DNA of 64,000 nt from an uncultured Candidatus Saccharibacteria bacterium (GTDB lineage: Bacteria > Patescibacteriota > Minisyncoccia > Minisyncoccales > CG1-02-41-26). A model generated the notes under the pieces. The model saw only the letters and a list, made by a program, of their open reading frames with translations, was not told where the DNA came from and did not search any database. Made by a program: the position numbers and the translations under genes. The DNA is taken from positions 5,852 to 69,851 of the forward strand of contig CAZLUG010000002.1 of assembly GCA_964562675.1 (NCBI GenBank), read 5' to 3'. Of this stretch, positions 7,873 through 61,169 are shown in pieces (position 1 is the stretch's first letter; each line of letters begins with the position of its first letter).

Positions 7873-7889
7873 CCGTTTTTTATTAAATC

Positions 7890-8534
7890 TTGAAAATTAT
7901 GAAAGCTTCTGTTTATGATTCAAAAGGCAAAGAAGTTAAGCAAATAACCCTCCCCAAAGATATTTTCAATGTAGAAGTGAACCTTGATTTATTACATCAG
8001 GTAGTTGTTTCTCAGATGTCTAATCGGCGTAAAACGATTGCCCATACTAAAGACCGAGGAGAGGTGCGTGGAGGAGGAAGAAAACCTTGGCGTCAAAAGG
8101 GGACAGGGAGAGCTAGGCACGGGTCACGCCGGTCTCCTATTTGGATTGGTGGTGGAGTGACTTTTGGGCCGAGAAAGGAAAAAATATTTAAAAAGGGTAT
8201 ACCGAGAAAAATGAGGAGAAAGGCTCTATTTATGGCGCTTTCGGCGAAGGCGAAAGGAAATTTGTTAACACTTCTTGATAAATTAGAACTTGACAAAGCA
8301 AAAACAAAAGAGATGTTTAAAATTCTGGGGAATTTACCTTGTCGACAACGAAACGTTTTGTTGATTTTACCAAGCTGCGATAAAAAAATTATCTTGGCTT
8401 CGAAAAATATTCCTGGGATTTCCACAATTCAAGCTAAAGATATCAATGTTCTAGATTTATTGTCATTTAAATATTTGTTGATGCCGGAAAAATCAATTAA
8501 GATTATTAAAAATACTTTTGCAAAAACAAGTTAA
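7890..8534 (+). CDS. rplD: 50S ribosomal protein L4
   Basis: uL4 pattern: GGGRKPWRQKGTGRARHGSRRSPIWIGGGVTFGP. Confidence 0.93.
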   Translation: MKIMKASVYDSKGKEVKQITLPKDIFNVEVNLDLLHQVVVSQMSNRRKTIAHTKDRGEVRGGGRKPWRQKGTGRARHGSRRSPIWIGGGVTFGPRKEKIFKKGIPRKMRRKALFMALSAKAKGNLLTLLDKLELDKAKTKEMFKILGNLPCRQRNVLLILPSCDKKIILASKNIPGISTIQAKDINVLDLLSFKYLLMPEKSIKIIKNTFAKTS

Positions 8535-37336: not shown

Positions 37337-40300
37337 ATGGATCTTCCAAAACGAGAGGAACAAATTATAAAATTTTGGCAGCAGAGAAAGATTTTCCAAA
37401 AGTCTCTGAAGCAGAACAAAAAGCGGCCTTATTTTAGTTTTTACGATGGGCCTCCTTTTGCTACCGGTTTACCGCATTATGGACACATTCTAGCTTCAAC
37501 CGTTAAAGACACCGTTTTACGTTATTGGTCTCAGCATCGTTATAGAGTTGAGTGGCGAGTGGGGTGGGATTGCCATGGGCTACCAGTAGAGAATCTTATT
37601 GAAAAAGAGTTAGGAGTTAAAACAAAAAAAGAGATTGAAAAGAAAATTGGTGTAGGAAAATTTAATCGAGCTTGCCGAAATTCTGTTTTTCGTTGTGTCA
37701 ACGACTTTCAAAAAATTCTTCAGCGAATAGGGCGATGGGCTGATTATGCAAATGCCTACGCTACTTTAGACCCGAATTACACCGAAAGTGTTTGGTGGGT
37801 TTTTAAAAAATTATTTGATAAAAAACTTATCTATCAGGATTACCGTGTAACTCCTTACTGCCCGCGTTGTGGCACTCCGTTGTCTAACTTTGAAGTTAAC
37901 CTAGGATACAAAAATGTTGAAGATGAATCTATTTACGTAAAATTTGCTCTTTTAGACCAGCCTCAAACTTTCTTTTTAGTTTGGACTACTACTCCCTGGA
38001 CTCTACCAGCTAATCTTGCCATAGCCGTTAACCAAAAATTTGAATATGTAAAAATTCGCCTAGAAAATAATGACAATAATCTTTCTCCTCAATTTCTTAT
38101 CTTGGCGAAAAAGCGGTTGGGCATTATTAAAGGAAATTATAAAATTATAGAAAATTTGTCTGGCCGTAAATTAGTGGGTTTGGCATATTCTCCTCTTTAC
38201 AAATTGAGAAATCATGAATTTAATCTTGAGCAAAAAAACAAAATTTTTAAGGTTGTTCCAGCTGATTTTGTTACCCTAGAGGAAGGGACAGGATTGGTGC
38301 ATATGGCCCCAGCTTTTGGGGAAGACGATCGGCAGGTAGGGAAAAAGTTTAACTTGCCTATTCTTATAACTATCAATTCCGAAGGGTCAATTTTGAAAGG
38401 ATTAGGTATTCCCGGTGAAGGAAAATTTGTTAAAGAAGCAGACAAAGACATTAAAACAGATTTAAAGAAACGAAATTTGCTTTATCGAGCAGAGAAAATT
38501 AAACATATTTATCCATTTTGTTATCGCTGTGATACCCCGCTTTTGTATTATCCCCTAAAAAGCTGGTATTTGAAGGTTACCGATTTTAGAAAACAATTAG
38601 TGGCTAACAACCAAAAAATTAATTGGCGTCCGAATTACTTAAAAAATGGGCGTTTTGGAAAATGGCTGAAAGGAGCAAGAGATTGGTGTTTATCCCGTAA
38701 TCGTTATTGGGGTGCTCCTATTCCTATTTGGGAGTGTTCTCATTGCCAAAAGAAAATAGCTGTTGGTTCAAAACAAGAATTAGGCAGACTAAGTACCACG
38801 TCTAACTTTTATTACCTTTTAAGGCATGGTGAAACTTCCTGCCATCAAAAAGGAATCATTGCCAATGATATTAACCATGATACCTGCCACTTGACTTCAG
38901 CGGGGAAAAAACAAATTCAAGAGGTGGCAAAGAAGTTAAGGAAAGAAAAAATCGATGTTATTTTTGCTTCTGATTTACGGCGCACTAAAGAAACCGCAAA
39001 CATTGTAGCTAAAACTCTTGGCCTAAAGGTAGAATTTTCTCCGAAACTTCGGGATCTGAATGTAGGACTCTACAATGGCCGTAGACTCGATTTTATTAAA
39101 GAACAAGTTTCTTTTGCAAAAAATCCCCAAGAAGCCTTTCCTAAAGGAGAAAGCTTAGTAAGCTGTTGGCAAAGAATGAAAGATGTCTTTCACGATACGG
39201 AGAGCAAATATCAAGGAAAAAAAGTACTAGTCATAGGACACGCCTTTCCCTTAAAATGCTTTGAGGGTATTCTTAAAGGCCATGGTTTATCTGAGGTGAG
39301 AGCAAAGAGAAATTTTGAAGTTGCTGAATTAAAAAAGATTGTCGGCAAAAAATGGCCCTTCAATGAAAGCGGAGAATTTGATTTTCATCGTCCCTACATT
39401 GATGAAGTTACACTCAAGTGTCCGATTTGCCATCATCCAATGAAACGCGTCCCTGAAGTTTTTGATTGCTGGTTTGAATCTGGTTCAATGCCGTATGCTC
39501 AGTGGCATTATCCTTTCAGCCACAAAAAAGTCGTGGAGAAAACTTTTCCCGCCGATTTTATTGCTGAAGGCGTAGACCAAACTCGAGGATGGTTTTATAC
39601 CTTGCATGTTTTAGCTACAGCCTTAACTCTGGAAAATATTGGCTTAGGAAAAAATAAGCCGGCCTTCAAGAATGTCATTGCCCACGGTTTAGTTCTAGGA
39701 GAAGATGGACGAAAGCTCTCTAAACACCTTAAGAATTATTCATCCCCCAATAACATTATCGACCATTACGGAGCTGATGCTTTACGTTTCTTTTTGCTGA
39801 GTTCTACGCCTATTGGACAGGATTATATTTTCTCTCAAAAAAGATTATCAATTACTTTTCGCCAAGTCATTGTAACTCTTTGGAACTCTTGGCAGTTTTT
39901 AAAAACATATTTACCAAAAGGGTTTATTTTGACGCCGAAAATTCAACCCCAAAATATTCTCGACAAATGGATTCTCTCTCGATTAGGTACTTTAGAAATT
40001 GAAATAGAAAAACAAATGAAGGCTTACCAATTGACCAAAGCAACTAGATTAATTGGAGTTTTTATAGATGATTTGTCAAATTGGTATATTCGCCGTTCGC
40101 GAATTAATTTTCAAAAAGAATCGGGAAAAACCGATAAAATAAAATCTGCCAACTTACTGGGTTTTACCTTGCTAAGATTATCCCAAATTTCTGCTCCGTT
40201 TATGCCTTTTTTAAGCGAAATGATTTATCAGTGGTTAAAAGAAAAAGCTCAATGGAAACTTCCCGAATCGGTCCATCTCACTCGTTATCCCGAAAAAGAG

Positions 40301-40834
40301 AAATCGTTTCAAAGCATTGCTCTGGAACGAAAAATGAAATTGGCCCGAGAAATAGTTGCTGAAATTCTTAGCCAGCGCTCTTCGCATAATTTAAAGATTC
40401 GCCAGCCTCTAAGCAAAGTAAGTTTTCCTCTAGATAAACTAAAAAATAAGAAATTGTGGAAAGTGGTGCAAGAAGAGACAAATATCCAAAAAATTGTCTT
40501 TAATCAAAAGCAGAAAGAGAATATTATTCTAGATACCAAACTTACCCCAGAGTTAAAAGAAGCAGGATTTTTAAGGGAGTTTATGCACGATATTCGGTCA
40601 CTGCGCAAAAAGACCGGTTTTAACCGTTTCCAAAAAACCAGCTTGAGTGTTACCGGTAATGAAAAATTTGTCTCTCTTGTCCAGAAAAATCAAGCAATTA
40701 TCCAAAAGGAGACATTATTGCAAGACATCCATTTTCCTCTTAGGGAAAGCGATATTTCTCAACAAGAAACGTACCTCCAAAAAGATTTTATTTTTCTTGA
40801 ATTTCAAGGTAAGATTTACTTGAGGAAGAATTAA
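37337..40834 (+). CDS. ileS: isoleucyl-tRNA synthetase, type 2 (eukaryote-like), carrying an inserted histidine-phosphatase domain
   Basis: Class I aaRS with PPFATGLPHYGHIL (HIGH region) and KLSKHLKNY (KMSKS-like). Type-2 IleRS blocks are WCLSRNRYWGAPIPIW and HRPYIDEVTLKCPICHHPMKRVPEVFDCWFESGSMPYAQ. A ~190-aa insert lies between these two blocks. Confidence 0.93.
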   Translation: MDLPKREEQIIKFWQQRKIFQKSLKQNKKRPYFSFYDGPPFATGLPHYGHILASTVKDTVLRYWSQHRYRVEWRVGWDCHGLPVENLIEKELGVKTKKEIEKKIGVGKFNRACRNSVFRCVNDFQKILQRIGRWADYANAYATLDPNYTESVWWVFKKLFDKKLIYQDYRVTPYCPRCGTPLSNFEVNLGYKNVEDESIYVKFALLDQPQTFFLVWTTTPWTLPANLAIAVNQKFEYVKIRLENNDNNLSPQFLILAKKRLGIIKGNYKIIENLSGRKLVGLAYSPLYKLRNHEFNLEQKNKIFKVVPADFVTLEEGTGLVHMAPAFGEDDRQVGKKFNLPILITINSEGSILKGLGIPGEGKFVKEADKDIKTDLKKRNLLYRAEKIKHIYPFCYRCDTPLLYYPLKSWYLKVTDFRKQLVANNQKINWRPNYLKNGRFGKWLKGARDWCLSRNRYWGAPIPIWECSHCQKKIAVGSKQELGRLSTTSNFYYLLRHGETSCHQKGIIANDINHDTCHLTSAGKKQIQEVAKKLRKEKIDVIFASDLRRTKETANIVAKTLGLKVEFSPKLRDLNVGLYNGRRLDFIKEQVSFAKNPQEAFPKGESLVSCWQRMKDVFHDTESKYQGKKVLVIGHAFPLKCFEGILKGHGLSEVRAKRNFEVAELKKIVGKKWPFNESGEFDFHRPYIDEVTLKCPICHHPMKRVPEVFDCWFESGSMPYAQWHYPFSHKKVVEKTFPADFIAEGVDQTRGWFYTLHVLATALTLENIGLGKNKPAFKNVIAHGLVLGEDGRKLSKHLKNYSSPNNIIDHYGADALRFFLLSSTPIGQDYIFSQKRLSITFRQVIVTLWNSWQFLKTYLPKGFILTPKIQPQNILDKWILSRLGTLEIEIEKQMKAYQLTKATRLIGVFIDDLSNWYIRRSRINFQKESGKTDKIKSANLLGFTLLRLSQISAPFMPFLSEMIYQWLKEKAQWKLPESVHLTRYPEKEKSFQSIALERKMKLAREIVAEILSQRSSHNLKIRQPLSKVSFPLDKLKNKKLWKVVQEETNIQKIVFNQKQKENIILDTKLTPELKEAGFLREFMHDIRSLRKKTGFNRFQKTSLSVTGNEKFVSLVQKNQAIIQKETLLQDIHFPLRESDISQQETYLQKDFIFLEFQGKIYLRKN
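38807..39300 (+). other. embedded histidine phosphatase (PGAM/His_Phos_1-like) domain within ileS
   Basis: Catalytic RHG motif YYLLRHGETSCHQ (codons at 38810-38833). An Arg motif is in ASDLRRTKETANIV. The second catalytic His is in KKVLVIGHAFPLKCF. The domain length is ~165 aa. Confidence 0.7.
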
Positions 40835-46728: not shown

Positions 46729-47250
46729 TTATGAAAATTTTTCAACTTTGAATTTGTAAACTATGATTCTTCCAAAACGGGGATCAATTCCTCCTTTTTG
46801 GCAGGCAATACTAATTTGTTTTTCAATTGTGTCCACCCCTTTTAAATTCGGCAGTAAGAGGCCGCTCTGAAGGGGGTTATCAGCACTTTTGACAATCACT
46901 CCATATTTTTTGGGGTCTAATTCCTTGAGATTGCTAACTTGTTCTGGAGGACTTAATATTGAAACCTCATAGTTCAGATAGGGCAATTCACTGACTTTTA
47001 GGGGTTGAAATCGGTAATCTTTGGCAGCGGCGGCAATAGCGCTATGGATAAGTTCTTGAGCAATATTTTTTTGGGTAGGTAAATATGTTCCCACGCATCC
47101 GCGCAATTGGCCTTTTTTCTCTAGAGTCACAAAAACACCTGCTTTCTTTTCTAGAAACTCTTTAGGTAGGTTAGAAGGGGGAAGTATAATTTTCCCTTCT
47201 TTCAGGTAATTTTCTATAGCTTCTTTGGCTAGTTGGATGAGAGGATGCAT
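46729..47250 (-). CDS. AMMECR1-domain protein (AmmeMemoRadiSam system protein A)
   Basis: Signature LRGCVGT (AMMECR1 LRGCIG motif), ~170 aa. Confidence 0.8.
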   Translation of the reverse strand: MHPLIQLAKEAIENYLKEGKIILPPSNLPKEFLEKKAGVFVTLEKKGQLRGCVGTYLPTQKNIAQELIHSAIAAAAKDYRFQPLKVSELPYLNYEVSILSPPEQVSNLKELDPKKYGVIVKSADNPLQSGLLLPNLKGVDTIEKQISIACQKGGIDPRFGRIIVYKFKVEKFS

Positions 47251-47282
47251 AAATTTTCTAATTTTGTTAAGAGGACGGACTG

Positions 47283-47597
47283 TTAATTTTGATTTTTTAA
47301 TTTTTCTATTATCTCTTTTATCCTTTTAGCTTCTTCTTTTACTACTTCGCTTGAATATTCGGCTGAATGGCTGGGCGCGTTTTGATAAATAGGCTTTTTT
47401 TGGTCCAAGTGTAAATTAAAAATCAAAATACCGTTTCCTTCCTTAAGGTAAATATGGAATCGGGGATATCTATTGCCCCCCAGAGGACGGATACAATTTA
47501 TTTCATCTTCTTTCTTTCCTAAAAAATAATAGCCGATTCTCTTTATAATAGTGTAAATATTTTCTTTTAATGACTCTTGAGAGATAATAAGTCTCAT
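47283..47597 (-). CDS. small hypothetical protein inserted between AMMECR1 and Memo-like genes
   Basis: A 104-aa ORF with tight spacing to its neighbours (its start codon directly abuts the upstream gene's stop; ~32 nt to the downstream gene). I recognised no domain. Confidence 0.35.
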   Translation of the reverse strand: MRLIISQESLKENIYTIIKRIGYYFLGKKEDEINCIRPLGGNRYPRFHIYLKEGNGILIFNLHLDQKKPIYQNAPSHSAEYSSEVVKEEAKRIKEIIEKLKNQN

Positions 47598-47598
47598 G

Positions 47599-48219
47599 TT
47601 AGTTGAGAAATTTAAAATTTGCTACTAAATAGCCAACTCCAAAAGGTCCTTCGTAAGATAAAATTTCTGGCTGCCAGTTTAATTTTTCTCCAGTTAAAAT
47701 ACCTAGCAAAAAAGAAAAAGAACGCAATCCGCAATCCGCTGCTTGGGGATAAATATCATCTAAGTTCAAAATTTTTTCTATATCTTTTCTTTTTAGGCTT
47801 TCTAAAAGGGCTTTATCAAATTTTGGGCCATCGGGCTGAAACCCGTATGGGCCGTCTTCTTTTAAGCAATGTGATAAATCACCCGAAGCAACCAAAGCGT
47901 ATTTTTTATCTTTCTCAAGCGAGCGAGCTATTTCCTTTCCTTTATTAAAATAGAATTTCGGCGGCTCAAAACCCGTTAAGAGAGTTTTTATTTCTCCTTT
48001 AAAGTTAGGGGTAATAAAATACAATGGTACTTTAAACCCCCAATCCAAATGAGGCGAAGATATTATTAAAATATCTGGCTTTTTTTGTGCGAGCTCCTTG
48101 TTAAGTTTTTTTAAACCTGCAATGGTTTTTTTAACTTTTTCTCTGTCCTCTTTAGAACCTACTGATGGCAGTAAGATCGGGGGATGGGGAGAAAAACAAG
48201 CAAAAGTAATCATATACAC
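47599..48219 (-). CDS. Memo/LigB-like protein (AmmeMemoRadiSam system protein B), apparently N-terminally short
   Basis: FSPHPPILLP and ASGDLSHCL motifs fit the Memo-family metal site. It is 206 aa against ~260-280 aa for the family. Confidence 0.6.
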   Translation of the reverse strand: MYMITFACFSPHPPILLPSVGSKEDREKVKKTIAGLKKLNKELAQKKPDILIISSPHLDWGFKVPLYFITPNFKGEIKTLLTGFEPPKFYFNKGKEIARSLEKDKKYALVASGDLSHCLKEDGPYGFQPDGPKFDKALLESLKRKDIEKILNLDDIYPQAADCGLRSFSFLLGILTGEKLNWQPEILSYEGPFGVGYLVANFKFLN

Positions 48220-48223
48220 TAAT

Positions 48224-49240
48224 CTAGTTTATAATATGTAAATTTTCTTTGCACTTTGAACAATATCCATGATTGTCATAACGGATAACTTGATATCCTT
48301 CCCGCTTAATCATTAAACTGCCGCATCGCGGGCAATAAGTACTTTGGTGTTTAAAATCATCAATGACATTTCCGATATAAACAAATTTTAATCCCGCTTT
48401 TTTGGCAATTTTGTATGCCTCCAAAAGAGTTGCTTTGGGAGTAGGGGAAACATCATTCATTTTATAAGCCGGGAAAAAAGCAGAAAGATGCCAGGGAATA
48501 TTAGGATTGATATTATAAATAAATTTAGCGATTTGATGAAACTCTTTAGACGAATCATTAAAATTAGGGATAATCAAAGTTGTTATTTCTTCCCAGACAC
48601 CAAGTTTATGCACTCTTTTAATGGTTTCTTTAACGGGTTCTAATTTTGCTTTGACAATTTCCTTGTAGAATTTTTCAGAAAATGACTTTAAGTCAATATT
48701 AATTGCATCTAAATAAGGGTGAATAAGTTCTAGGGCTTCTTTTGATTCGTATCCATTTGATACCCAGACATTTTTAATGCCAGCTTCTCTTGCTAATTTC
48801 ATTGTATCTAAAGCGTATTCTAAAAAGACAGTTGGTTCGTTGTAAGTATAAGCAATAGTTGGAATTTGCTGAGTTTTACAATATTGGACAATTTCTTGAG
48901 GGGCTAATTCTTTGCTTAGTTTTGGAATAATTTCTGGATTTTTTTGGGCTGTTTGCGAAATTTCCCAATTTTGGCAAAAATTACACCCAAAATTACACCC
49001 ATAGGTACCAAAAGATAAAACTTGACTGCCTGGCTTAAAATGAAAGAGTGGTTTTTTCTCAATTGGGTCAATGTTCAATGTAGCAGCTTTCCCATAAACT
49101 AAAGAATAAAGTTTTCCTCCAATATTTTTTCTTACTCCGCAAATTCCCGTTTTCCCTTCCGGCAATACGCAGTAATGGGCGCAATTTCTGCATTGAATCT
49201 TCTTTCCAGAGAGTTTTTTATAAAGATAAGCTTCTTTCAT
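48224..49240 (-). CDS. AmmeMemoRadiSam system radical SAM enzyme
   Basis: Radical SAM CNFGCNFC (C-x3-C-x2-C). An N-terminal auxiliary Cys cluster CRNCAHYC...C is present and a C-terminal CPRCG...CSKC. It lies in an operon with the Memo-like and AMMECR1 genes. Confidence 0.85.
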   Translation of the reverse strand: MKEAYLYKKLSGKKIQCRNCAHYCVLPEGKTGICGVRKNIGGKLYSLVYGKAATLNIDPIEKKPLFHFKPGSQVLSFGTYGCNFGCNFCQNWEISQTAQKNPEIIPKLSKELAPQEIVQYCKTQQIPTIAYTYNEPTVFLEYALDTMKLAREAGIKNVWVSNGYESKEALELIHPYLDAINIDLKSFSEKFYKEIVKAKLEPVKETIKRVHKLGVWEEITTLIIPNFNDSSKEFHQIAKFIYNINPNIPWHLSAFFPAYKMNDVSPTPKATLLEAYKIAKKAGLKFVYIGNVIDDFKHQSTYCPRCGSLMIKREGYQVIRYDNHGYCSKCKENLHIIN

Positions 49241-49503: not shown

Positions 49504-51267
49504 ATGATAAAAACAAAAGACGGGATTGACAATAATCATCCTTGGTTTCAATTTTATCCTAAAGGAAAATCTTTTTCTCTCCATTATCCGGAGGTTCCGC
49601 TATACTCCTTTCTTGACAAAACAGCGGAAAATCAACCGAATAAAACAGCTTTGGTTTTTTACAACCAGAAAATAAGTTACCAACAATTAAAAGAATTAAC
49701 AGACAAATTTGCTAACTTGCTTAAAAATCTATCCATCAAAAAAGGCGACCGCGTCGCCTTTTTGCTTCCAAATTGCCCTCAGTTTGTCATTGCTCTTTAC
49801 GGAACAATCAAAACTGGCGCTATTGCCACTGTTTTGAATCCTCTTTACAGCAAAGAGGAATTGCATTCTTGCTTACAAAATTCAAAACCTAAAATTATTG
49901 TCTCTTTAAAAATGTTCGTTGATAAAATTGCTGATTATCCGGGGAAAATCATTATTACAAAAATTTCTGATTACTTGCCCCAAAAACTTAAAATTCTTTT
50001 CAACATTAAAGAAATCATAAAGTCTCCAAAAGAAGAAAAGAAGAATTTACCCAAGAGAAAAGATGTCTTTTGGCTCCGCAAAGCTTTAAAAAACAGTTCA
50101 GCTAAACTTCAGCCTGTCCAAATTAACGCTCGCCAAGATCCAGCTTTAATAATTTACACTTCCGGCACTACCGGCGTGCCAAAAGGCGCAATCTTAACTC
50201 ATTTTAACTTAGTTTCCAATGCTTTTTCGCTAAACGTTTGGGCTGAAGAAATCAAAACAGACAGTTATTTAGCTGTTTTGCCGCTTTTCCACATTTACGG
50301 TTTAACCGTACAACTATTAACGGCTATTTTAAGAGGGGCTTCGGTGATTCTTTTACCAAAATTTCACACTCGCGAAGTGGTCAAGACTATCCAGAAATAT
50401 AAAATCCAATATTTTGTCGGTGTTCCCCAAATGTACAGCGCTTTAGTGAAATATTCTGCTTCTACTCATCAGCTTCATCTATTTGATTCACTCATCCTTT
50501 GTTCAAGCGGAGCGGCATCTATCTCGGGTTACTTGTGGAACAAAATAAAAGAAATAGCCCCTCGGGCAAAATTAATGGAAGGATATGGACTCTCGGAAAC
50601 ATCACCAGTAGTGCTTATTGATTCTCTCTCGAAAAATTACTTTAAAAAAGAAGGTTCCCCGGGCATCCCAATTTTTGATACGGACGTAAGAATTGTTGAT
50701 ATGGAAACAGGCAGGGAGCTTGCGGCGGGGGAACCAGGAGAAATTGTTGTCAAAGGACCGCAGGTTTTCCAGGGTTACTGGCATAATTTAGAAAAAACAA
50801 AGCAAGTGTTAAAAAATGGTTGGTTTTACACTCATGATATTGGGCATATGGATCCAGACGGCAGATTCTATATCCACGAACGCATTGACGATATCATTAA
50901 TGTCAAAGGTGAAATGGTGTGGCCGGGAAGAGTAGAGCGAATTTTAAAAAAACATCCTAAAATTAAAGAAGCCGCCGTGATTAGCGTAAAAAGCGAGTAT
51001 TACACCCAAGCGATTAAAGCTTATCTTGTACTTAAGAAAAAACAGACTATTAGTAAGGCTGAGGTGACAAATTTTTGCCAAGATAAATTAGCCCGCTATG
51101 AAATTCCTGTTTTTATTGAATGTGTGGAGAAACTGCCTCGAACTTATGTAGGGAAATTGCAACGTTTTAAATTAAGGAAGAAATCCAGGCAAAAGGCTAA
51201 GCCTGTTAAGCATAATTTAAATAAAAAGGCCGAAAACAGTAAAAAAAAGAAAAACATGAAGAAATAA
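49504..51267 (+). CDS. long-chain-fatty-acid--CoA ligase (AMP-binding enzyme) with K-rich C-terminal tail
   Basis: AMP-binding motifs: YTSGTTGVPKGA, GYGLSETS and the C-terminal domain. The last ~35 aa are lysine-rich low complexity. Confidence 0.9.
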   Translation: MIKTKDGIDNNHPWFQFYPKGKSFSLHYPEVPLYSFLDKTAENQPNKTALVFYNQKISYQQLKELTDKFANLLKNLSIKKGDRVAFLLPNCPQFVIALYGTIKTGAIATVLNPLYSKEELHSCLQNSKPKIIVSLKMFVDKIADYPGKIIITKISDYLPQKLKILFNIKEIIKSPKEEKKNLPKRKDVFWLRKALKNSSAKLQPVQINARQDPALIIYTSGTTGVPKGAILTHFNLVSNAFSLNVWAEEIKTDSYLAVLPLFHIYGLTVQLLTAILRGASVILLPKFHTREVVKTIQKYKIQYFVGVPQMYSALVKYSASTHQLHLFDSLILCSSGAASISGYLWNKIKEIAPRAKLMEGYGLSETSPVVLIDSLSKNYFKKEGSPGIPIFDTDVRIVDMETGRELAAGEPGEIVVKGPQVFQGYWHNLEKTKQVLKNGWFYTHDIGHMDPDGRFYIHERIDDIINVKGEMVWPGRVERILKKHPKIKEAAVISVKSEYYTQAIKAYLVLKKKQTISKAEVTNFCQDKLARYEIPVFIECVEKLPRTYVGKLQRFKLRKKSRQKAKPVKHNLNKKAENSKKKKNMKK

Positions 51268-51279: not shown

Positions 51280-51936
51280 ATGTCAGAAAAAACTGTAATA
51301 ATATTTGATCTTGATGGCACGATTGTTAGTAAAAACACCCAGACCAGTTTGTTCATTTATCTTTTCAAAAAAAAGAAAATCTCTTTAAAATTTTTTTCTC
51401 AGGTTATTTTTTGGTCAATTTTGTACAAACTTGGAATAATAAATTTATCAAAAATAATGGGGAAAATTTATCGATTTACTTCAAAACTTGACCCGGATAA
51501 CTTCGAGAGTTTACTCACTGAATTTTATCGAGATATAATCAGAAAACAAATTTACCGTAGGGCTTTGCAATTGATTGAGAAATATGAATCATCCGGCATG
51601 CCAGTTGGTTTAATATCTACTTCCATTCAACCATTAGTAAAAATAGTAGGGGATCAGTTAAAAGTGAATTTTGCAATAGGCACGAAACTTCAGGTAGAAA
51701 ATGGAAAATTTACCGGAAAAATTGCAGGAAAACCAATGTATGGCATAGTAAAACTTGAGACAATGCGAAAATTAGCTCAGGAAAACGGTTGGGATTTAGC
51801 TTCTAGCTATTTTTTTTCAGATAACCATTCTGACAAACCTTCACTTGAAGCAGTAGGCCATCCTCGAGCAATTAACCCTACCCCCAAACTTAGAAAAATG
51901 GCTCGACGCAACCACTGGCTAATTTTATACTGGTAA
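51280..51936 (+). CDS. HAD-superfamily hydrolase (subfamily IB, phosphoserine-phosphatase-like)
   Basis: Motif I VIIFDLDGTIV, motif II LISTS, a K motif and motif IV (FFSDNHSD). Confidence 0.8.
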   Translation: MSEKTVIIFDLDGTIVSKNTQTSLFIYLFKKKKISLKFFSQVIFWSILYKLGIINLSKIMGKIYRFTSKLDPDNFESLLTEFYRDIIRKQIYRRALQLIEKYESSGMPVGLISTSIQPLVKIVGDQLKVNFAIGTKLQVENGKFTGKIAGKPMYGIVKLETMRKLAQENGWDLASSYFFSDNHSDKPSLEAVGHPRAINPTPKLRKMARRNHWLILYW

Positions 51937-52621: not shown

Positions 52622-53750
52622 TATGCACATGAAGATACATGGGTGACACTCTAAAAATCAAGAAATATGAAGGAACCCATTGATTTAAAGGATGTTACCT
52701 ACTGTGATAGAGTGGAAATTAAGCTAATCTACGAATTGGGTTATCGTTTAATCAATGAAGTGGTTCTGCTCTATCATATGCTCTCATTTTTAAATAAATA
52801 CAATGATTTTTCCAAGGAAGCCAAACCAAAACTAAAATGGATAGACTATTATCATCAATGTGGCAATGTTTCTAAGATCTGTTGATGTTTCGGCATTTCC
52901 CGCCAATGTTTCTATGAATGGTATTGAAAATATGGCCCGAACAACCTTTACGCCCTGGAAAATCGATCTACCACCTCTATCAGGAAAAGACAAAGAGAAA
53001 TTACTCCAGAACAAACATTAAGAGTTATCGGGTTAAGAAAGAAATATATTCGCCACAGCAAGATTAAACTGGCCAGAATCTATCAACGAGAATATGGAGA
53101 AGTTATTTCTTCCTGGAAAGTCCAAAAAGTCATTAAGAAATACAGACTCTACCACAATTCCAAGAAAATCACTAAAATTCCGTATAAACGCTTAATCGCC
53201 ATTCAGAAGAAGAGAATCACCGAACTGAACAAAAAGCCTAAAAATGGATTTTTTCTTTGTTTAGATGCTATTAAATTAAGAATGAACAATCTCAAAATAT
53301 ACATCTTTACCGAAATAGATTCTTTTTTAAGGTGGCTTTCGCCTGAATGTACAAGAATGCTAATCCCTACAACGCAGCTGATTTCCTTAATAGGTTGCTT
53401 TACTTAGTTAACGGAAGAATTGAAAACATTCAAACAGATAACGGAAGTGAAATTGAAAAATACTTTAACCAGGCCTGCCGAAAAATGGGATTAGTTAGAT
53501 ATTACAGCCATCCGAGAACCCCTAAGGATAATCCAGTCAATGAACAATTAAACAAAACCTTAGAAGATGAATTTATCAGTCTTATCAATTTTAATCCTAA
53601 TGTTACGTAATTTAACAAGAACCTGACCGAATGGCTGATTGAATACAATTTTAAAAGGCTCCATCAGGCACTTAACTACGAAACGTCGATAAAATTCAAT
53701 AATTTTATTAAAGTGTCACCTATGTGCTCATCGCACACAATAGATTGACA
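52622..53750. mobile_element. degraded IS element (IS481-family-like DDE/rve transposase), ~1.1 kb
   Basis: Imperfect terminal inverted repeats share the core GGTGACACT (52642-52650) against AGTGTCACC (53712-53720). The interior encodes rve-integrase-core fragments in at least three frames. Confidence 0.6.
52667..53748 (+). pseudogene. frameshifted DDE transposase (integrase core domain) pseudogene
   Basis: One frame gives ...LCLDAIKLRMNNLKIYIFTEIDSFLRW... (first D and second D regions). Another frame gives IQTDNGSEIEKYF...YSHPRTPKDNPVNEQLNKTLEDEF (DNGSEF and E/K region). A third frame gives the C-terminal ...TEWLIEYNFKRLHQALNYET. Stops and frameshifts lie between the pieces. Confidence 0.6.
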
Positions 53751-54089: not shown

Positions 54090-54133
54090 TCATCCATTTT
54101 TGAGGGAGAGAATATTACTCTCCCTCTATCATT

Positions 54134-54688
54134 TTGTATAATATGGTTATAGAATTTGAATTTTTTCTCATAATAATAATTTTATTTTTATTAATCTTTT
54201 TTTCTCCTACCACGGTAAAAGCAGCTTTTATGGGAGCGCCGTTTGTGCCCACTCCAAAAAAGATAATTCGTAAAGCCTTGAAAACTGCTCATTTGAAAAA
54301 AAACGAGAAATTATATGATTTGGGTTGCGGCACTGGAAGGGTTTTGGTTATTGGAGCAAAGGAATTTGGGGCGAAAGTGACAGGGGTGGAATATTCTATA
54401 CCTCTTTTTGCTTTGGCTAAAATAAATCTGCTCTTGCACAAAATTAAAAATGGAAAAATTTATAGAAAAGATTTCTTTAAAGAAAACATAAAATTAAATA
54501 ACGCTGATGTTGTTTTTTTATTCTTAACCCCAAAAGCTTTTCCTAAGCTGAAAGGTAAATTTGAGAGAGAGTTAAAACCAGGCACTAGAATAATCGCTTA
54601 TTCCTCTCCTCTTTTATTTTGGGAACCAACCGAAACAGTTTTTACTCCAAATCCAAAAATAAAGATATATCTCTATATCAAGAGGTAA
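54134..54688 (+). CDS. membrane-anchored small class I SAM-dependent methyltransferase (CbiT-like), paralog 1
   Basis: N-terminal TM FFLIIIILFLLIFF. Then GAPFVPTPKKIIRKALKTAHLKKNEKLYDLGCGTGRVLVIGA (motif I) and the acidic motif-II residue in VTGVEYS. Confidence 0.75.
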   Translation: MYNMVIEFEFFLIIIILFLLIFFSPTTVKAAFMGAPFVPTPKKIIRKALKTAHLKKNEKLYDLGCGTGRVLVIGAKEFGAKVTGVEYSIPLFALAKINLLLHKIKNGKIYRKDFFKENIKLNNADVVFLFLTPKAFPKLKGKFERELKPGTRIIAYSSPLLFWEPTETVFTPNPKIKIYLYIKR

Positions 54689-55131: not shown

Positions 55132-56277
55132 ATGGATAGTTTAAGTGTTAATTTATTTACATCATCGTGTTTTATAACTGGTTTCTTGGCAATAGGATTA
55201 GGTGTTTTTGTTCTCTCAAAGGGGTATAGAAAAAAAACGCATCGTGCGTGGTTTTTATTAAGTTTAGCTATATTTATATGGTCAATAGCCCTGGGTGGAA
55301 CGACGATTGCTAAAAACAAGGAAATTGCCTTATTTTGGCAAAGAATATTATATATAGGAACTATTTTATTGCCCGTTTTGTTCCTAGATTTTTGTTCGTT
55401 TTTTACAAAGGTTTCTCATGGCATAAAGCGAATATTATGGATAGGTTCTATTTTAACAGCCATTTTTTTAATTTCTGTCTTCACAAAATTTTTTATAGCA
55501 GGAATAGAACCGAGAACTAGTTTTGGTTACTGGCCTATAAAAACTGGGGTTTTATACCCTTTGTTTTTAGCGTTCTTCGCGTTTTATATTAGTTATTCAT
55601 TTATCCTCTTGAAAAAAGTTTATAATCAATCTTATGGAATTAAAAAGCGGCAAATATCATTTTTATATTATGGAGCTCTTATTGGTTTTATTGGTGGTTC
55701 AACTAATTTTCTATTAGATTTTGATATCAAAAATTTTTACCCTTTTGGAAATTTCTTTATCGCATTATACGTTGTAATCGTAACTTATGCGATGTTCAAA
55801 TATCATTTAATGGAAATTAAACTCATAGCTACTCAATTGTCTGTTGGACTAGTAGCTATTATTCTTTTCGTAGATATTTTATTATCAAACTCACTAATTA
55901 TTTTTTGGCTAAAGATAGGTATATTTTTTGGATTTCTTTACCTTGGCTATTTATTAATTAAAAGCGTTTTAAACGAAACAAACCAAAGACAAAGAATAGC
56001 GAAAATGGCAAAGGAACTAGCGGAAAATAATGATTCTCTCAAAGAACTTAACGGGACACTTGATGAAAAGGTGAAAGAAAGAACGGAAGAGTTGGAAAAA
56101 AGCAGAGCAACACTTGAAAAAACTAATAAGGATTTAGGAAAGAGCACAAAGGAAATAGAAGATAAGGAAAAAGAACTCGAAAAATGGTATAATCTAACTG
56201 TCGGTCGGGAATTAAAAATGATAGAGTTAAAAAAGAAAATTGAGGAATTGAAAGGAAAAGATCAAGTTTACAGATAA
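55132..56277 (+). CDS. multi-pass membrane sensor-domain protein with C-terminal coiled coil (kinase-less paralog of the downstream histidine kinase N-terminus)
   Basis: About 7 TM segments. Blocks are shared with the 57818 protein: WSIALGG/WALAVGL, YAMFKYHLMEIKLIATQLSVGLVAIILFV/YAITKHHLFNIKVILTELFVGLISFFLLV and FLYLGYLLIKSV/FLYLGYSLIKSV. The C-terminal ~110 aa is a K/E-rich coiled coil with no HisKA/HATPase. Confidence 0.6.
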   Translation: MDSLSVNLFTSSCFITGFLAIGLGVFVLSKGYRKKTHRAWFLLSLAIFIWSIALGGTTIAKNKEIALFWQRILYIGTILLPVLFLDFCSFFTKVSHGIKRILWIGSILTAIFLISVFTKFFIAGIEPRTSFGYWPIKTGVLYPLFLAFFAFYISYSFILLKKVYNQSYGIKKRQISFLYYGALIGFIGGSTNFLLDFDIKNFYPFGNFFIALYVVIVTYAMFKYHLMEIKLIATQLSVGLVAIILFVDILLSNSLIIFWLKIGIFFGFLYLGYLLIKSVLNETNQRQRIAKMAKELAENNDSLKELNGTLDEKVKERTEELEKSRATLEKTNKDLGKSTKEIEDKEKELEKWYNLTVGRELKMIELKKKIEELKGKDQVYR

Positions 56278-57110: not shown

Positions 57111-57785
57111 ATGAAATTACTGCTAACAACTAAGATTGACAAAAAAAATGTTTTGAAATTCGGCATTCCAACGAATAAAATAGAAAGAGAGAAAATTTTT
57201 AAATTAAGATATACTGTTTATATCCTAGAAAAAGGTTATCGAGAATCAAAAGCTACTGTTAAGAAACAAGAATATGATAAATATGATCGAAAAGTACGAA
57301 CTCAATACTTTATGGCTTTACTTGGTAAAAAACTGGTGGGGACAATTAGATTAGTAGTGGGAAGACCACTGCCTGTAATGGAAGATTACTTCGAATTTCA
57401 AGAACCCAAAGAAACAAAGAAATTTTCATCTAATCAAATAGCTGAAATAAGCCGGGCAATTTCGCGACCTAGAGGCGCTGCCCTTCCTCGTCACATAGTC
57501 TCCCTCGGGCTATTTTTCTGTCTCTTGCAGTGGAGCTCTAAACATAATATCAAAGTTGAATACGAAGTAGTTAAGAAGGATTTAGCAATAAAATTAAAAA
57601 AAATTAATTTACCCCTTCATAAAATTAAAAATTTTTCTCTAAAAAACACCCCCTTAACTCGTGAATATTCTGGTTATTTTAAAAAAAACACAAATAATCT
57701 TTTCATTTTTTACTTTTTCACCAGAAAAGTACAAAATCAATTAGAGAAAATTCTTTCCAAAATGCAATATCTGAAAATTACTTAG
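57111..57785 (+). CDS. LuxI-family (autoinducer synthase / N-acyl amino acid synthase-like) GNAT-fold acyltransferase
   Basis: The LuxI signature is aligned against V. fischeri LuxI recalled from memory (not database-verified): LRYTVY..EKGY (LRYQVF..LEW), EYDKYD (ESDEYD), YFMALLGKKLVGTIRLV (YIYACDD..VSGCWRLL) and EISRAIS (ELSRFAV). Confidence 0.6.
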   Translation: MKLLLTTKIDKKNVLKFGIPTNKIEREKIFKLRYTVYILEKGYRESKATVKKQEYDKYDRKVRTQYFMALLGKKLVGTIRLVVGRPLPVMEDYFEFQEPKETKKFSSNQIAEISRAISRPRGAALPRHIVSLGLFFCLLQWSSKHNIKVEYEVVKKDLAIKLKKINLPLHKIKNFSLKNTPLTREYSGYFKKNTNNLFIFYFFTRKVQNQLEKILSKMQYLKIT

Positions 57786-57817
57786 ATGTCTAAAAAAATT
57801 TATCCCTTGTAATAAAT

Positions 57818-59482
57818 TTGACTCTTGTTAAAACAACTATGGAAATTGGGGCTTTAATTTCGATTATTGTAAGTTTAATCAACTTCTTTTTTGGGTTATT
57901 CATCCTGATAAAAAACTCTAAAGATTTATCAAGTAAGCTTTATTTTATTTTATCTACCTCAGCTTCTATTTGGGCATTAGCCGTTGGATTAGGCAGAATA
58001 TCTCAATCTTTCCCTACCTTACTATTATGGGAAAAAATCTCTTACATAGGGGGAATTGGGACGGCTCTTTTCTTTTTCTACTTTTCTATTGTTTTCCCTT
58101 TCTTTAGCTTCTTTCGGATTCGCAAAAAGAATAATCTAGCTCTTTCTGTTTTAGTATTGCCTCTCATTCTTTTCGTTTTTTTGTTAAAAATAATTATTTT
58201 CAACTTTGATACCTTCGTACAAAATGTGGCATTTGCGAGTTCCTCTAAATACGTAATCGCCAGTATCATATTCAAGTTCGGTAAAAATTATACTCTCTAC
58301 GTTCTATTTATTCCTGTCCTATTCGGGTTAGCATTAATTAATCTATTCCTTAAATATAAAAAAGCTACCCATACTGAAAAAGCACAAATATTTTTTGTTA
58401 TCTTAGGAACTTCAATTTCTTTGTTTTCAGCAATATTTTTAAACCTTATACCTAGAAGGAACATTCTTGAGTATAATTATCTTGCTCCAAGTTTCATATT
58501 AGCAACTGTTATATCTATCGCTTATGCCATTACAAAACACCATCTCTTTAATATTAAGGTTATTCTTACAGAATTATTTGTTGGATTGATTTCATTCTTT
58601 CTACTTGTAAAAGTATTCATAGGACAAAATACTACCGAGCGATTACTTTGGTTACTCATTACTATCATTTTTCTTTATCTTGGTTATTCATTAATCAAAA
58701 GTGTCTGGAGAGAAATAAAAAGGCGGAAGAAATTAGAAATTTTAACACACCAACTAGAAAAAGCTAATGCGGAATTAAAACGGATAGACAAATCTAAAAC
58801 AGAGTTTTTGTCTATGGCCTCTCACCAATTAAGAACACCTCTCACCGCTATCAAGGGATATATTTCAATGTCTTTAGAGGGGGATTACGGTCAACTCTCT
58901 GAAAGAGAGAAACGAGTTCTAAAAAACGTTTACCAATCAAATGAAAGGTTAATCAATATCGTAAACGATTTATTAAATATTTCACGAATTGATTTGGGGA
59001 AAATGGAGCTTAAGAAAGCACCAGTTCGAATCAATAAACTTATAGAAAGTATTTCTCAAGAATTTCAGGAAAAATTTAAAGAAAAAAATCTGAAATTTAT
59101 ATTCCAAAAATCTAAAGAACCTTTGCCAGAAATTGAAGCTGATGCTCTAAAAATTTCTCAAGTGATATCTAATCTTTTAGACAACGCTTTGAAATATACA
59201 CGTAAAGGTTCTATTGTGATTGCTTCTAAATTTGACCCGCTGAAAAAGATTATTTTGATATCTGTTCAAGATACTGGCGAAGGGTTAAATAAAGAAGAAA
59301 AAGGGAAAATATTTGAGAGTTTTGTGAGAGGGTCAGCTGGAATTAATGACTGGGTACAAGGAGTTGGGTTGGGGCTTTGTGTGGCAAAACGTTATGTAGA
59401 ACTTCACCACGGAAAGATTTGGGTAGAATCTGCCGGGAAGGGGAGAGGCGCTACTTTCTATGTTGCACTACCGGTAAAATAA
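57818..59482 (+). CDS. sensor histidine kinase with N-terminal 7TM-type sensor domain
   Basis: ~7 TM segments, then a coiled-coil linker. HisKA is EFLSMASHQLRTPLTAIKGY. HATPase_c has N-box NLLDNALKYT, G1 DTGEGL and G2 GVGLGL. TTG start at 57818; ATG at 57839 is possible. No response regulator is in the window. Confidence 0.85.
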   Translation: MTLVKTTMEIGALISIIVSLINFFFGLFILIKNSKDLSSKLYFILSTSASIWALAVGLGRISQSFPTLLLWEKISYIGGIGTALFFFYFSIVFPFFSFFRIRKKNNLALSVLVLPLILFVFLLKIIIFNFDTFVQNVAFASSSKYVIASIIFKFGKNYTLYVLFIPVLFGLALINLFLKYKKATHTEKAQIFFVILGTSISLFSAIFLNLIPRRNILEYNYLAPSFILATVISIAYAITKHHLFNIKVILTELFVGLISFFLLVKVFIGQNTTERLLWLLITIIFLYLGYSLIKSVWREIKRRKKLEILTHQLEKANAELKRIDKSKTEFLSMASHQLRTPLTAIKGYISMSLEGDYGQLSEREKRVLKNVYQSNERLINIVNDLLNISRIDLGKMELKKAPVRINKLIESISQEFQEKFKEKNLKFIFQKSKEPLPEIEADALKISQVISNLLDNALKYTRKGSIVIASKFDPLKKIILISVQDTGEGLNKEEKGKIFESFVRGSAGINDWVQGVGLGLCVAKRYVELHHGKIWVESAGKGRGATFYVALPVK

Positions 59483-59639: not shown

Positions 59640-60161
59640 ATGTATCTTTTAATTCTGTATCTCTCAATTTTAGGACTAACTATACTATTACTCTCCGGCG
59701 CTCTTTTTGATGCCCCCTGGGTTCCAACTAGAAAAAGAGATTTTGAGCGAATAGCAAAATTAGCAAAATTGCAACCAGGAATATCATTTTATGATTTGGG
59801 TTGCGGCACGGGAGAAATGCTATTTTATTTGTCTTCTAAGTACAAAGTAAATTGTGTAGGCGTGGAAATATCGCCAATTTTATATTTGTATTCAAAAATA
59901 AAATCGCTGTTTTATAAAAGAGTAAAAATCATATACGGCGATTTTTATCAACATAACATATCAAAAGCTGACATTGTATATGCTTTTTTAATGCCTAAAT
60001 CTATGGATAAGCTAAAGAGAAAAATTAAGAAAGAATCAAAAAAAGATGCAAGAATTATAATATCATGTTGGTCGCTTCAAGGTTACAATCCAACGTTAAT
60101 AAGCCAAAAAAATAATAGGATGACATATTATCTATATGGAAAATCCGCTCTATTAAAATAG
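59640..60161 (+). CDS. membrane-anchored small class I SAM-dependent methyltransferase (CbiT-like), paralog 2
   Basis: N-terminal TM LLILYLSILGLTILLLSGALF. Then DAPWVPTRKRDFERIAKLAKLQPGISFYDLGCGTGEMLF, the same architecture as the 54134 gene. Confidence 0.75.
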   Translation: MYLLILYLSILGLTILLLSGALFDAPWVPTRKRDFERIAKLAKLQPGISFYDLGCGTGEMLFYLSSKYKVNCVGVEISPILYLYSKIKSLFYKRVKIIYGDFYQHNISKADIVYAFLMPKSMDKLKRKIKKESKKDARIIISCWSLQGYNPTLISQKNNRMTYYLYGKSALLK

Positions 60162-60254
60162 GGCGGATTAGCGTATGGGAAATATGTTTCTTTATTCCCG
60201 ATTGTTTTGCTGTCCTTGCAACTTACACACATCCTTCTGGCAGAGTCTGCTTAG

Positions 60255-60283
60255 AGTCTATCGAAGTTAAACTTCGATAGACT
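60255..60283 (+). terminator. perfect 12-bp hairpin (AGTCTATCGAAG-TTAAA-CTTCGATAGACT) followed by TCTTTAATGTTT
   Basis: Seen directly, ~95 nt downstream of the methyltransferase stop. It could be a terminator or a protein-binding palindrome. Confidence 0.35.
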
Positions 60284-60506
60284 TCTTTAATGTTTAATGC
60301 AAAGATAGTATTCTCTCTAAACCAAGACTACCAGTGGCAAAAACCGCTATATATGTGTAAACATTACCTAAAGCATTTGGCAAGAACTAAAAAATTACTT
60401 ATAATAAAAGGAGCGACAGTGAATTTAAAGATTATTTTTTTAAGAGCAATTATTGATAAATTAGTTCCAAAACGCCTTTAACCTTAGAAGATTTCTTTAT
60501 GAATCA

Positions 60507-61169
60507 ATGGGGAATAAAACTAAAAAATTAATCATTCTCGTCAGTCTTTTTAAAAGCAGGATGGGAGCTGTTAAAGATTTATTAGTTTTGTTGGGAAAAG
60601 GGGTAAGAGTAAGAGAGATAGATAAAGAATATCAAGAGAAAAAACTTTTTGGGCCATGGGGATTAGAGGAATTAGCCAAATTATATAAGGGTTTTCCTAA
60701 AGATAAATTACAAACGGCGGCTTTGTATTATTGCCGAAAAAACTTATTGGATGGGCTAAGGGAGCTTGCCGTTAATCTGAAGAAAAAAGGGTTTATTCTC
60801 GGCATTTTAAGCTCAAATCCTCAGTTCATCATTGATTCTCTAAGAAGATTTCTGCCAGTGGATTTTGCTTTTGGCACCCAGTTAGATTTTTGCCAGGGAA
60901 TAGCAAATGGGAAAATTAAAAGAGAACTTAATATGTATGAGAAAAGTGAAATTTTAAGGCGAGAAGAGGAAAAATACAGCATAACCTCGCAGAATGTTAT
61001 GGTTATAGGCCGAGCAACCATAAATCATCTTTTGATGGCAGAAGAAGCAGGAAAATTTATTGGCTTTAATCCGGAAACAGAAAATCTCACTAAAATTATT
61101 AATGCAAACCAAGAAATCAAAAAGTTCTTACTCTTGAAAAATTCATCCCATTTTCCTCAACTTCGTTAA
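60507..61169 (+). CDS. HAD-like fold protein with degenerate motif I
   Basis: C-terminal HAD motifs are GILSSNPQFI and MVIGRATINHLLMAEEAGKFIGFNP (D/K region). The N-terminal DxD nucleophile motif is not recognisable. Confidence 0.45.
   Translation: MGNKTKKLIILVSLFKSRMGAVKDLLVLLGKGVRVREIDKEYQEKKLFGPWGLEELAKLYKGFPKDKLQTAALYYCRKNLLDGLRELAVNLKKKGFILGILSSNPQFIIDSLRRFLPVDFAFGTQLDFCQGIANGKIKRELNMYEKSEILRREEEKYSITSQNVMVIGRATINHLLMAEEAGKFIGFNPETENLTKIINANQEIKKFLLLKNSSHFPQLR

Follow-up and report, generated by a model that had tools for sequence, protein, structure and literature searches.

A conserved gene cassette lies on contig CAZLUG010000002.1, in a stretch of 64,000 nucleotides (the window in what follows) where the genes for an S-adenosylmethionine (SAM) methyltransferase, an N-acyltransferase with the LuxI/FeeM fold and a sensor histidine kinase with a seven-transmembrane (7TM) type sensor follow one another on the forward strand (Table 1). 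Across Patescibacteria, the cassette comprises these three genes in this order, preceded in some loci by a fatty-acid-coenzyme A (CoA) ligase or a PlsC-like acyltransferase and followed in some by a receiver-only response regulator. The original prediction for this DNA had described a two-gene module, a LuxI-family or N-acyl amino acid synthase (NAS) beside a multi-transmembrane (TM) sensor kinase. Both open reading frames (ORFs) are present where it had placed them, and all four motifs that it quoted are found in the translation of the 224-amino-acid (aa) acyltransferase: LRYTVYILEKGY at aa 32-43, EYDKYD at 54-59, VGTIRLV at 76-82 and EISR at 112-115.

By far the top curated match of the acyltransferase is NCBIfam TIGR03694, the model of the PEP-CTERM/exosortase-associated N-acyl amino acid synthase, yet the score stays well under the cut-off of that model (E 1.9e-18, 66.8 bits against 111.95). 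The FeeM model PF21926 is matched with 34 bits (E 3e-8; gathering threshold 27) and PF13444 (Acetyltransf_5) with 28.8 bits (cut-off 22.4), both passing, and PF00765 (Autoind_synth) with 22.2 bits (E 1.2e-4), below its gathering threshold of 24. By curated thresholds, the protein passes the FeeM model and neither the LuxI model nor TIGR03694. The family assignment in the original prediction is upheld at the level of the structural superfamily, by the FeeM model, the fold and the residues, but not by the cut-offs of PF00765 and TIGR03694. In an AlphaFold model of the protein (pLDDT 94), acyl-homoserine lactone (AHL) synthases and FeeM are matched far ahead of the generic GNATs that had been named as the competing assignment, with AHL synthases as the top structural matches and the CoA-dependent LuxI relatives MesI, BjaI and RpaI among the closest solved structures. 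The model has the LuxI/FeeM variant of the GNAT fold, including a putative catalytic Glu, the counterpart of Glu95 in FeeM.

The residues tell a similar story of mixed affinity. In an alignment of 41 representatives of the acyltransferase family, R33, Y37, D56, D59, R80, P88, E112, R115 and P126 are invariant and Y43 is conserved in at least 90%; the R, E, D and S-R residues, whose loss had been raised as a possible objection, are thus intact. When compared with the LuxI residue set (R25, F29, W35, D46, D49, R70, E101, S103, R104), the window protein keeps R33, D56, D59, R80, E112, S114 and R115 with LuxI spacing, whereas the Phe is replaced by Y37 and the Trp by Y43. It is therefore a hybrid, LuxI-like in the E-x-S-R motif and the D-x-x-D pair and FeeM-like in its Tyr/Tyr aromatic pair. 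FeeM is listed with Tyr/Tyr at the aromatic positions and with Gln where the LuxI type has E-x-S-R (PMC9654057 Table 1), and the corresponding Phe27/Trp33 of LasI are described as crucial for SAM binding (PMC4655403). Altogether, the gene is predicted to encode a LuxI/FeeM-fold N-acyltransferase with its catalytic Glu and its R / D-x-x-D / R / E-x-S-R set intact.

A word-indexed homologue search with the acyltransferase found only the protein itself, a GTDB genome scan with the single protein found nothing, and 1.84 billion cluster representatives, searched exhaustively with HMMER, yielded 205 relatives at E <= 1e-3. The family is regarded, from its sequences, as a rare and separate clade. TIGR03694 matches all 41 family members (best E 5.5e-20) and is the top-scoring curated model for each of them, although their scores, judged from E values, also appear to lie under the cut-off of 111.95 bits. 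FeeM PF21926 likewise matches 41 of 41 (best 1.5e-15), PF00765 matches 38 at E <= 0.01 (best 7.4e-12), a TraI-type model matches 14, and the OlsB NCBIfam model matches two, weakly (best E 7e-4), leaving the window acyltransferase unmatched. Against PDB sequences, the family profile finds RpaI (5e-8) as well as BjaI, EsaI, LasI and TofI, with E values from 5e-8 to 1e-2.

Fusion proteins among the family representatives join the acyltransferase to the methyltransferase in both orders, as NAS-methyltransferase (P0058, P0109) and as methyltransferase-NAS (P0068), which speaks strongly for one molecule as the target of both enzymes. A tandem NAS-NAS fusion also occurs (P0149). Locus L006 has two FeeM-like genes in a row, the extra one (7165-7978) immediately upstream and split into ORFs of 165 and 115 aa, making it a tandem duplicate that may be in decay. 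In P0048 (617 aa), the acyltransferase is fused to a HisC/CobD-like pyridoxal-phosphate enzyme (TIGR01141, E 1.1e-68), which may make the amine acceptor in its lineage; a CqsA/SPT-like oxoamine synthase was considered for this partner and ruled out.

The gene order around the acyltransferase was compared in nine independent relatives (L003, L005, L006, L008, L090, L091, L092, L093, L174; G+C content 0.25 to 0.42). In all nine the kinase is directly downstream of the acyltransferase, often overlapping it by a few bases, and these kinases are orthologous over their full length, sensor included, at 27-52% identity. The idea that synthase and kinase form a conserved functional pair is borne out by this adjacency in every relative examined and by the stop and start codons that often overlap. 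Moreover, an orthologue of the methyltransferase (full length, 38-59% identity to the window protein) adjoins the acyltransferase in eight of the nine (L003, L005, L006, L008, L090, L091, L093, L174) as well as in the L094-L112 set, and the contig of the ninth is cut at that point. Starting from the methyltransferase instead, a metagenome scan gave 23 full-length orthologues, 12 of them in low-GC loci with enough flanking sequence. The FeeM-type gene is adjacent to the methyltransferase in 10 of these 12, and the kinase directly follows the cassette in 11; in the twelfth, L108, tblastn finds kinase matches on either side. Orthologues of the methyltransferase with high GC have neither the acyltransferase nor the kinase, so that its family reaches beyond the module. 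With about 20 unrelated low-GC loci, the pairing of acyltransferase and kinase is not due to chance. The methyltransferase is, on the strength of these alignments, to be counted as a core member of the cassette and as its most conserved one. The two-gene module of the original prediction is therefore right as to the conserved pair and too small as to its extent, since the orthologous methyltransferase is an obligate partner and a ligase or PlsC-like gene and a receiver are found in relatives.

Mean pairwise identity is 33% for the acyltransferase and 28% for the sensor, compared with 48% for the methyltransferase and 42% for the kinase core. The nearest genome, the metagenome-assembled genome (MAG) AUK098 (L174), has 80% identity to the window in SecY, 59% in the methyltransferase, 52% in the sensor and 41% in the acyltransferase; its locus also carries an AI-2E family transporter gene (PF01594, 1582-2643) two genes upstream of the methyltransferase, acyltransferase and kinase. 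One relative bears MAG labels of Xanthomonadaceae and Rhodospirillaceae, yet its contig has 25% GC and a cassette like that of the loci resembling the candidate phyla radiation (CPR), and it is probably mis-binned.

The flank upstream of the methyltransferase is variable. A PlsC-like (PF01553) acyltransferase gene stands directly upstream of it in eight relatives (L006, L008, L091, L093, L102, L108, L111, L112), and in L090 it lies some 2 kb upstream of the acyltransferase; such a gene was found neither in the 64-kb window by tblastn nor among the genes called on its downstream extension L001. In L005, L100 and L101, the same position is taken by a fatty-acid-CoA ligase. The L100 and L101 ligases are orthologous to the one found in the window at 49504-51267 (41-43% identity, full length), and the AMP-binding ligase of L005 is more distant. 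For the window ligase, the best NCBIfam matches are long-chain-fatty-acid-CoA ligases (431 bits, under cut-offs), and the enzyme is the probable supplier of the activated acyl donor, although detached from the cassette in this genome. The acyltransferase slot itself also varies. A second, more FeeM-like subtype occupies it in six loci, and L096 and L111 keep methyltransferase and kinase without a recognisable FeeM-type gene. In L096, the 229-aa ORF before the kinase has no Pfam match and may or may not be a strongly diverged acyltransferase. In L111, the interval between methyltransferase and kinase (1756-3998) holds an ORF of 364 aa whose NAD-binding match is weak, together with a class V aminotransferase (E 1.8e-64), making this locus a variant cassette with different chemistry.

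The kinase carries, above the gathering thresholds, PF16927 HisKA_7TM (E 9.6e-13, 48.9 bits), HisKA (E 5e-19, 68.5 bits) and HATPase_c (E 4e-23, 82.3 bits), and its translation shows the H-box 'SMASHQLRTPL' with the phospho-acceptor His as well as the N, G1 and G2 boxes. About nine hydrophobic segments joined by short loops are seen in aa 1-290 by a crude hydropathy scan, in line with the multi-TM sensor kinase that had been predicted. By the same measure, the sensor is embedded in the membrane almost throughout, essentially without an extracytoplasmic domain, and all orthologues look alike. The ORF spans 57818-59482 and opens at a TTG at 57818, but the start is likely the ATG at 57839, because gene callers use it and it is aligned with residue 1 of the orthologues. 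The acyltransferase is separated from the TTG by 32 nt and from the ATG by 53 nt, and not by the 25 nt first reported. Only three homologues of the sensor could be retrieved from the database. Among five sensor regions, no PrsK-, CqsS- or LuxN-type NCBIfam match was found at E <= 0.1, and homology of the sensor to PrsK, CqsS or LuxN was rejected on this ground; the resemblance to PrsK drawn in the original prediction is an analogy and not a homology.

As had been stated, the window holds no response regulator, to judge from tblastn. However, a receiver-only regulator is encoded about 5 kb downstream of the kinase on the same contig, beyond the window end (L001 9535-9900), and in L008 and L099 such a regulator directly follows the kinase. 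The receiver of the window contig is an orthologue of that of L008 (50% identity), and the order response regulator, aspartyl-tRNA synthetase, peptidase S11, MraY is common to both.

Table 1. Coordinates of the cassette genes and of associated features in the window
Feature	Position	Strand	Support
Long-chain fatty-acid-CoA ligase-like enzyme, 587 aa	49504-51267	+	AMP-binding E 1.6e-96
Terminator-like hairpin upstream of the unit	54102-54126	+	consensus match only
Single-TM-anchored methyltransferase, 184 aa, first gene of the putative transcription unit	54134-54688	+	Methyltransf_31 E 1.7e-11
Kinase-less sensor paralogue, 381 aa: HisKA_7TM and ~100-aa coiled coil	55132-56277	+	PF16927 E 2e-18
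UbiE/Methyltransf_11-type SAM methyltransferase, 231 aa	56281-56976	+	Pfam Methyltransf_11 E 5.7e-21
LuxI/FeeM-fold N-acyltransferase, 224 aa	57111-57785	+	ORF and hidden Markov model matches; putative catalytic Glu at E112
Sensor histidine kinase, 547 aa from ATG	57839-59482	+	HisKA_7TM, coiled-coil linker, HisKA, HATPase_c
Single-TM-anchored methyltransferase, 173 aa, directly after the kinase	59640-60161	+	profile matches, hydropathy
Terminator-like hairpin downstream of the unit	60254-60284	+	consensus match only

In the window, the three core genes are part of a set of six bracketed by the two terminator-like hairpins, which are consensus matches only. The best PDB relatives of the core methyltransferase are phosphoethanolamine N-methyltransferases (E 1.4e-16), which hints at amine methylation without being diagnostic of it. 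Its start lies 4 nt past the stop of a kinase-less sensor paralogue, 27% identical to the sensor of the kinase over 316 aa; no counterpart was found next to the cassette in the other loci, and this gene appears to be a lineage-specific accessory. The two single-TM-anchored methyltransferases that bracket the cassette are paralogues of each other (37% identity), resemble DOT1 and protein-lysine methyltransferases, and have one N-terminal hydrophobic segment each; the upstream one matches an archaeal protein-lysine methyltransferase model at E 6e-22, below its cut-off. L096 has a gene of this kind between methyltransferase and kinase (7090-7593, minus strand), and the bracketing pair may or may not be part of the module. 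Genes for HAD-family phosphatase-like proteins flank the region at 51280-51936 (+) and 60507-61169 (+), the latter with a weak SerB (phosphoserine phosphatase) match of 55 bits, under cut-off; for neither was a counterpart found in the other loci.

The window is assigned, from its gene content, to the chromosome of a member of the Patescibacteria, class Paceibacteria, which agrees with the CPR-like genome first suggested. SecY is 62-76% identical to that of MAGs labelled Nealsonbacteria, Staskawiczbacteria, Gribaldobacteria, Paceibacterota and Minisyncoccales (62-80% with the nearest genome), and the S5 gene is followed by L15 after 13 nt with no L30 gene in between. The AMMECR1, LigB (MEMO1-like) and radical-SAM genes at 46729-49240 (-) mark conserved synteny, because the same trio is also found upstream of the cassette in L008. 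Compared with L008, the window cassette has apparently moved upstream of LigT-MurC, beside a weak integrase-core remnant, and has lost the adjacent PlsC-like gene and regulator. The remnant, just upstream of the cassette at 53347-53610 (+), with 52667-52885, includes an ORF of 87 aa whose integrase-core (rve) match is weak (E 0.002, under cut-off). The region from 54 to 60 kb is the lowest-GC part of the window (0.30-0.32 against ~0.35). Elsewhere in the window, the class I catalytic domain of the isoleucyl-tRNA synthetase (37337-40834, +; 1165 aa) is split in two by an inserted His_Phos_1 domain (aa 493-656, E 8.9e-33), a histidine phosphatase domain of the phosphoglycerate-mutase-like kind.

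The genomes of Patescibacteria are minimal, with few two-component systems and without fatty-acid synthesis. It is proposed, with a probability of about 0.4, that the cassette makes a methylated amphiphile of the N-acyl-amino-acid type from scavenged fatty acids and that this product is sensed in the membrane. The fatty acids would be activated, probably to acyl-CoA, which is favoured by the ligase nearby and by the CoA-dependent relatives MesI, BjaI and RpaI among the closest structures. By homology to FeeM, NasY and LuxI, the N-acyltransferase would then move the acyl chain onto the amino group of an amino-acid-type acceptor through Glu112 and Ser114-Arg115. The obligate co-occurrence and the fusions suggest that the methyltransferase methylates that molecule, either on a free amine or on a free carboxylate, the latter yielding a neutral methyl ester that resembles an AHL. 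The amphiphile would partition into the membrane and be detected there by the membrane-embedded sensor of the co-transcribed kinase, which, by analogy with LuxM/LuxN, CqsA/CqsS and PhcB/PhcS, may phosphorylate the stand-alone receiver, with output by protein-protein contact. An N-acyl amino acid is favoured over an AHL because TIGR03694 is the best model, because the aromatic pair is Tyr/Tyr, because a more FeeM-like subtype sits in the same slot in six loci, and because an obligate methyltransferase would have a target on a carboxylate or side-chain amine and none on a lactone. The view that the product is a sensed signal is drawn from the invariable coupling to the kinase, the all-membrane sensor and the faster divergence of acyltransferase and sensor, all of which resemble LuxM/LuxN, CqsA/CqsS and PhcB/PhcS. 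A signalling role of the synthase-kinase pair is plausible, with a function in membrane lipids as a serious rival. In the most far-reaching version, the cassette would be a self-contained autoinducer circuit of ultra-small episymbionts that turns host fatty acids into a methylated N-acyl amino acid, for example a methyl ester like the NAMEs (methyl esters of N-acyl amino acids), which the 7TM kinase would read in the membrane to report cell density or host contact; this version is considered unlikely.

Several observations weigh against a methylated and sensed N-acyl amino acid. The LuxI-like E-x-S-R motif and D-x-x-D pair, together with a family profile that does not reach FeeM among PDB sequences, leave room for an AHL-type reaction, and the window acyltransferase lacks a C-terminal segment of about 25 aa found in most relatives. 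A Mantel test shows acyltransferase and sensor to co-vary weakly, short of significance (rho 0.21, p 0.07; rho -0.15 for acyltransferase and kinase core). The regulator is without an output domain and, in most loci, stands apart from the kinase. Since L096 and L111 lack a recognisable FeeM-type gene, the kinase may respond to something other than the product of that enzyme. Finally, the PlsC-like neighbours in nine relatives suit a membrane aminolipid pathway in two steps no less than a signal. In such a pathway, the N-acyltransferase would take the OlsB-like step, a PlsC-like O-acyltransferase the OlsA-like one, and the methyltransferase would methylate the head group as OlsG does; together they would build a phosphorus-free or remodelled lipid from host fatty acids, and the 7TM kinase would monitor the state of the membrane and tune the pathway. 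CPR bacteria lack fatty-acid synthesis and have to remodel the lipids that they scavenge. The best solved relatives of the methyltransferase act on head-group amines, fatty-acid-CoA ligases are nearby, and the PF13444 domain, whose cut-off is passed by the window protein, is common to aminolipid N-acyltransferases (PMC11631085). However, the PlsC-like gene is missing from the window, from the L001 gene calls and from about half of the relatives, hence not core, and the OlsB models match 2 of 41 members, against 38-41 of 41 for the NAS and LuxI models. Ols and Gls loci are not known to be invariably coupled to a kinase, and O-acylation needs a 3-hydroxyacyl chain that normally comes from type II fatty-acid synthesis. 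The aminolipid N-acyltransferases moreover form a branch separate from NAS and AHL synthases (PMC11631085). The aminolipid pathway is considered less likely than the sensed N-acyl amino acid, but a serious rival to it.

The retained R, D-x-x-D, R and E-x-S-R residues with their LuxI spacing would also suit a true AHL system, in which a divergent LuxI converts SAM and acyl-CoA or acyl-acyl carrier protein to an AHL that the membrane kinase senses as LuxN senses HAI-1. This was the published reading of Bernard et al. 2020 (PMC7567580), and the AHL synthases that head the structural matches, the profile matches from RpaI to TofI and the PF00765 and TraI-type hits across the family all speak for it. 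It is nonetheless considered rather improbable, since the window protein falls short of the PF00765 gathering score, TIGR03694 scores far better than any AHL-synthase model, the SAM-binding Phe/Trp pair is Tyr/Tyr as in FeeM, and AHL synthesis has no place for the methyltransferase, which is obligate and sometimes fused. Furthermore, no LuxR-type or Autoind_bind protein was found among the window ORFs scanned or the annotated neighbours in relatives. A distinctly improbable alternative is that the genes are co-transcribed without any pairing of ligand and receptor, for example with a kinase that senses an external or host cue and controls the production of a surfactant, antibiotic or adhesion lipid. 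The persistence of methyltransferase and kinase in L111, with its FeeM-type gene replaced, and in L096, with that gene unrecognisable, and the non-significant Mantel test would fit it, as would the biosurfactant or antibiotic activity of N-acyl amino acids made by related enzymes (PMC4897644, PMC7293339). On the other hand, a sensor essentially without an extracytoplasmic domain favours membrane-borne ligands, and a regulator without a DNA-binding domain makes simple transcriptional control of the operon a less obvious output. The PEP-CTERM/exosortase-associated synthase with a PrsK-like kinase, to which TIGR03694 as the top curated model of all 41 members would point, is effectively refuted. 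The score of the window protein is far below the cut-off of that model and those of the family appear to be so too, no exosortase or PEP-CTERM gene was found in the annotated ORFs of the window, as had been noted from the start, or in those of the relatives' loci, and the sensor regions are without a PrsK-type match at E <= 0.1. The hosts, moreover, are monoderm-type CPR bacteria. This genomic context was accordingly rejected.

The presence of a LuxI-like gene beside a sensor kinase in CPR genomes has been known in silico since 2020, so the headline observation is not new. The statement that LuxI-family enzymes are essentially unreported in Patescibacteria was wrong: among 2,503 CPR genomes, Bernard et al. 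(2020, mSystems) found nine LuxI homologues by BLAST and 36 by hidden Markov models, of which 18 had a putative sensory kinase as neighbour; key residues were kept and Trp35 was replaced by Phe or Tyr (PMC7567580). What the present analysis adds is the transformation of a published "LuxI + kinase" note into a defined and testable module of three to five genes, in which the obligate methyltransferase argues against a plain AHL and for which two concrete chemical outcomes can be named, a methylated N-acyl amino acid signal and a methylated aminolipid. In a literature search, no description was found of the obligate or fused methyltransferase, the closer NAS affinity, the ligase or PlsC-like and receiver components, or the aminolipid alternative. 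The upkeep of an intact cassette in diverse lineages, amid changing neighbours, argues for a real part in the biology of their surface or communication. The cassette would also offer a candidate class of ligands for the uncharacterised HisKA_7TM sensor domain. If the autoinducer circuit were true, it would be the first defined signal-receptor pair in Patescibacteria, would supply the first genes for molecules of the N-acyl amino acid methyl ester type and would yield the first HisKA_7TM ligand.

Several known systems come close to the cassette. The LuxI/kinase pairs of Bernard et al. (2020) are the same phenomenon, read there as AHL synthases, but that account mentions neither the methyltransferase and its fusions nor the NAS affinity, the ligase or PlsC-like neighbours or the receiver; the terms 'methyltransferase' and 'N-acyl amino acid' occur 0 times in it, and PlsC-like proteins are handled separately, as 'HdtS' AHL synthases (PMC7567580). 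The FeeM- and TIGR03694-type N-acyl amino acid synthases differ in that the window protein is under the TIGR03694 cut-off and without exosortase context, that the family profile does not reach FeeM by sequence, that E-x-S-R is kept where FeeM is listed with Gln, and that the window family is always paired with methyltransferase and kinase. LuxI-type AHL synthases (LasI, EsaI, TofI and the CoA-dependent BjaI, RpaI and MesI) are the top matches in structure and in PDB sequence and are alike in residue positions and spacing, whereas the window protein is under the Pfam threshold, has Tyr for both Phe and Trp, has no LuxR partner and comes with an obligate methyltransferase. N-acyl alanine and glycine methyl esters of Roseobacter-group bacteria, the NAMEs, are AHL analogues (PMC11580390, PMC6296433) whose biosynthesis genes are not known, and a link between them and the cassette is purely hypothetical. 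Aminolipid pathways (OlsB/OlsA, GlsB/GlsA, OlsF) resemble the cassette in combining a PF13444 N-acyltransferase with a PlsC-like O-acyltransferase (PMC11631085). They differ from it in the near absence of OlsB matches (2 of 41 members), in the PlsC-like gene that the window and about half of the relatives lack, and in Ols and Gls loci that are not linked to kinases. The methylation by OlsG, a methyltransferase of the ornithine-lipid pathway, is a further likeness. In LuxM/LuxN, AinS/AinR, CqsA/CqsS, LqsA/LqsS and PhcB/PhcS, the gene for the synthase of a lipid-like signal stands beside a multi-TM kinase without a periplasmic domain, and PhcB is itself a SAM methyltransferase making a fatty-acid methyl ester. 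The window cassette matches their architecture, although NCBIfam gave no match linking its sensor to these receptors, its synthase belongs to a family unlike LuxM, CqsA or PhcB and its regulator is a bare receiver.

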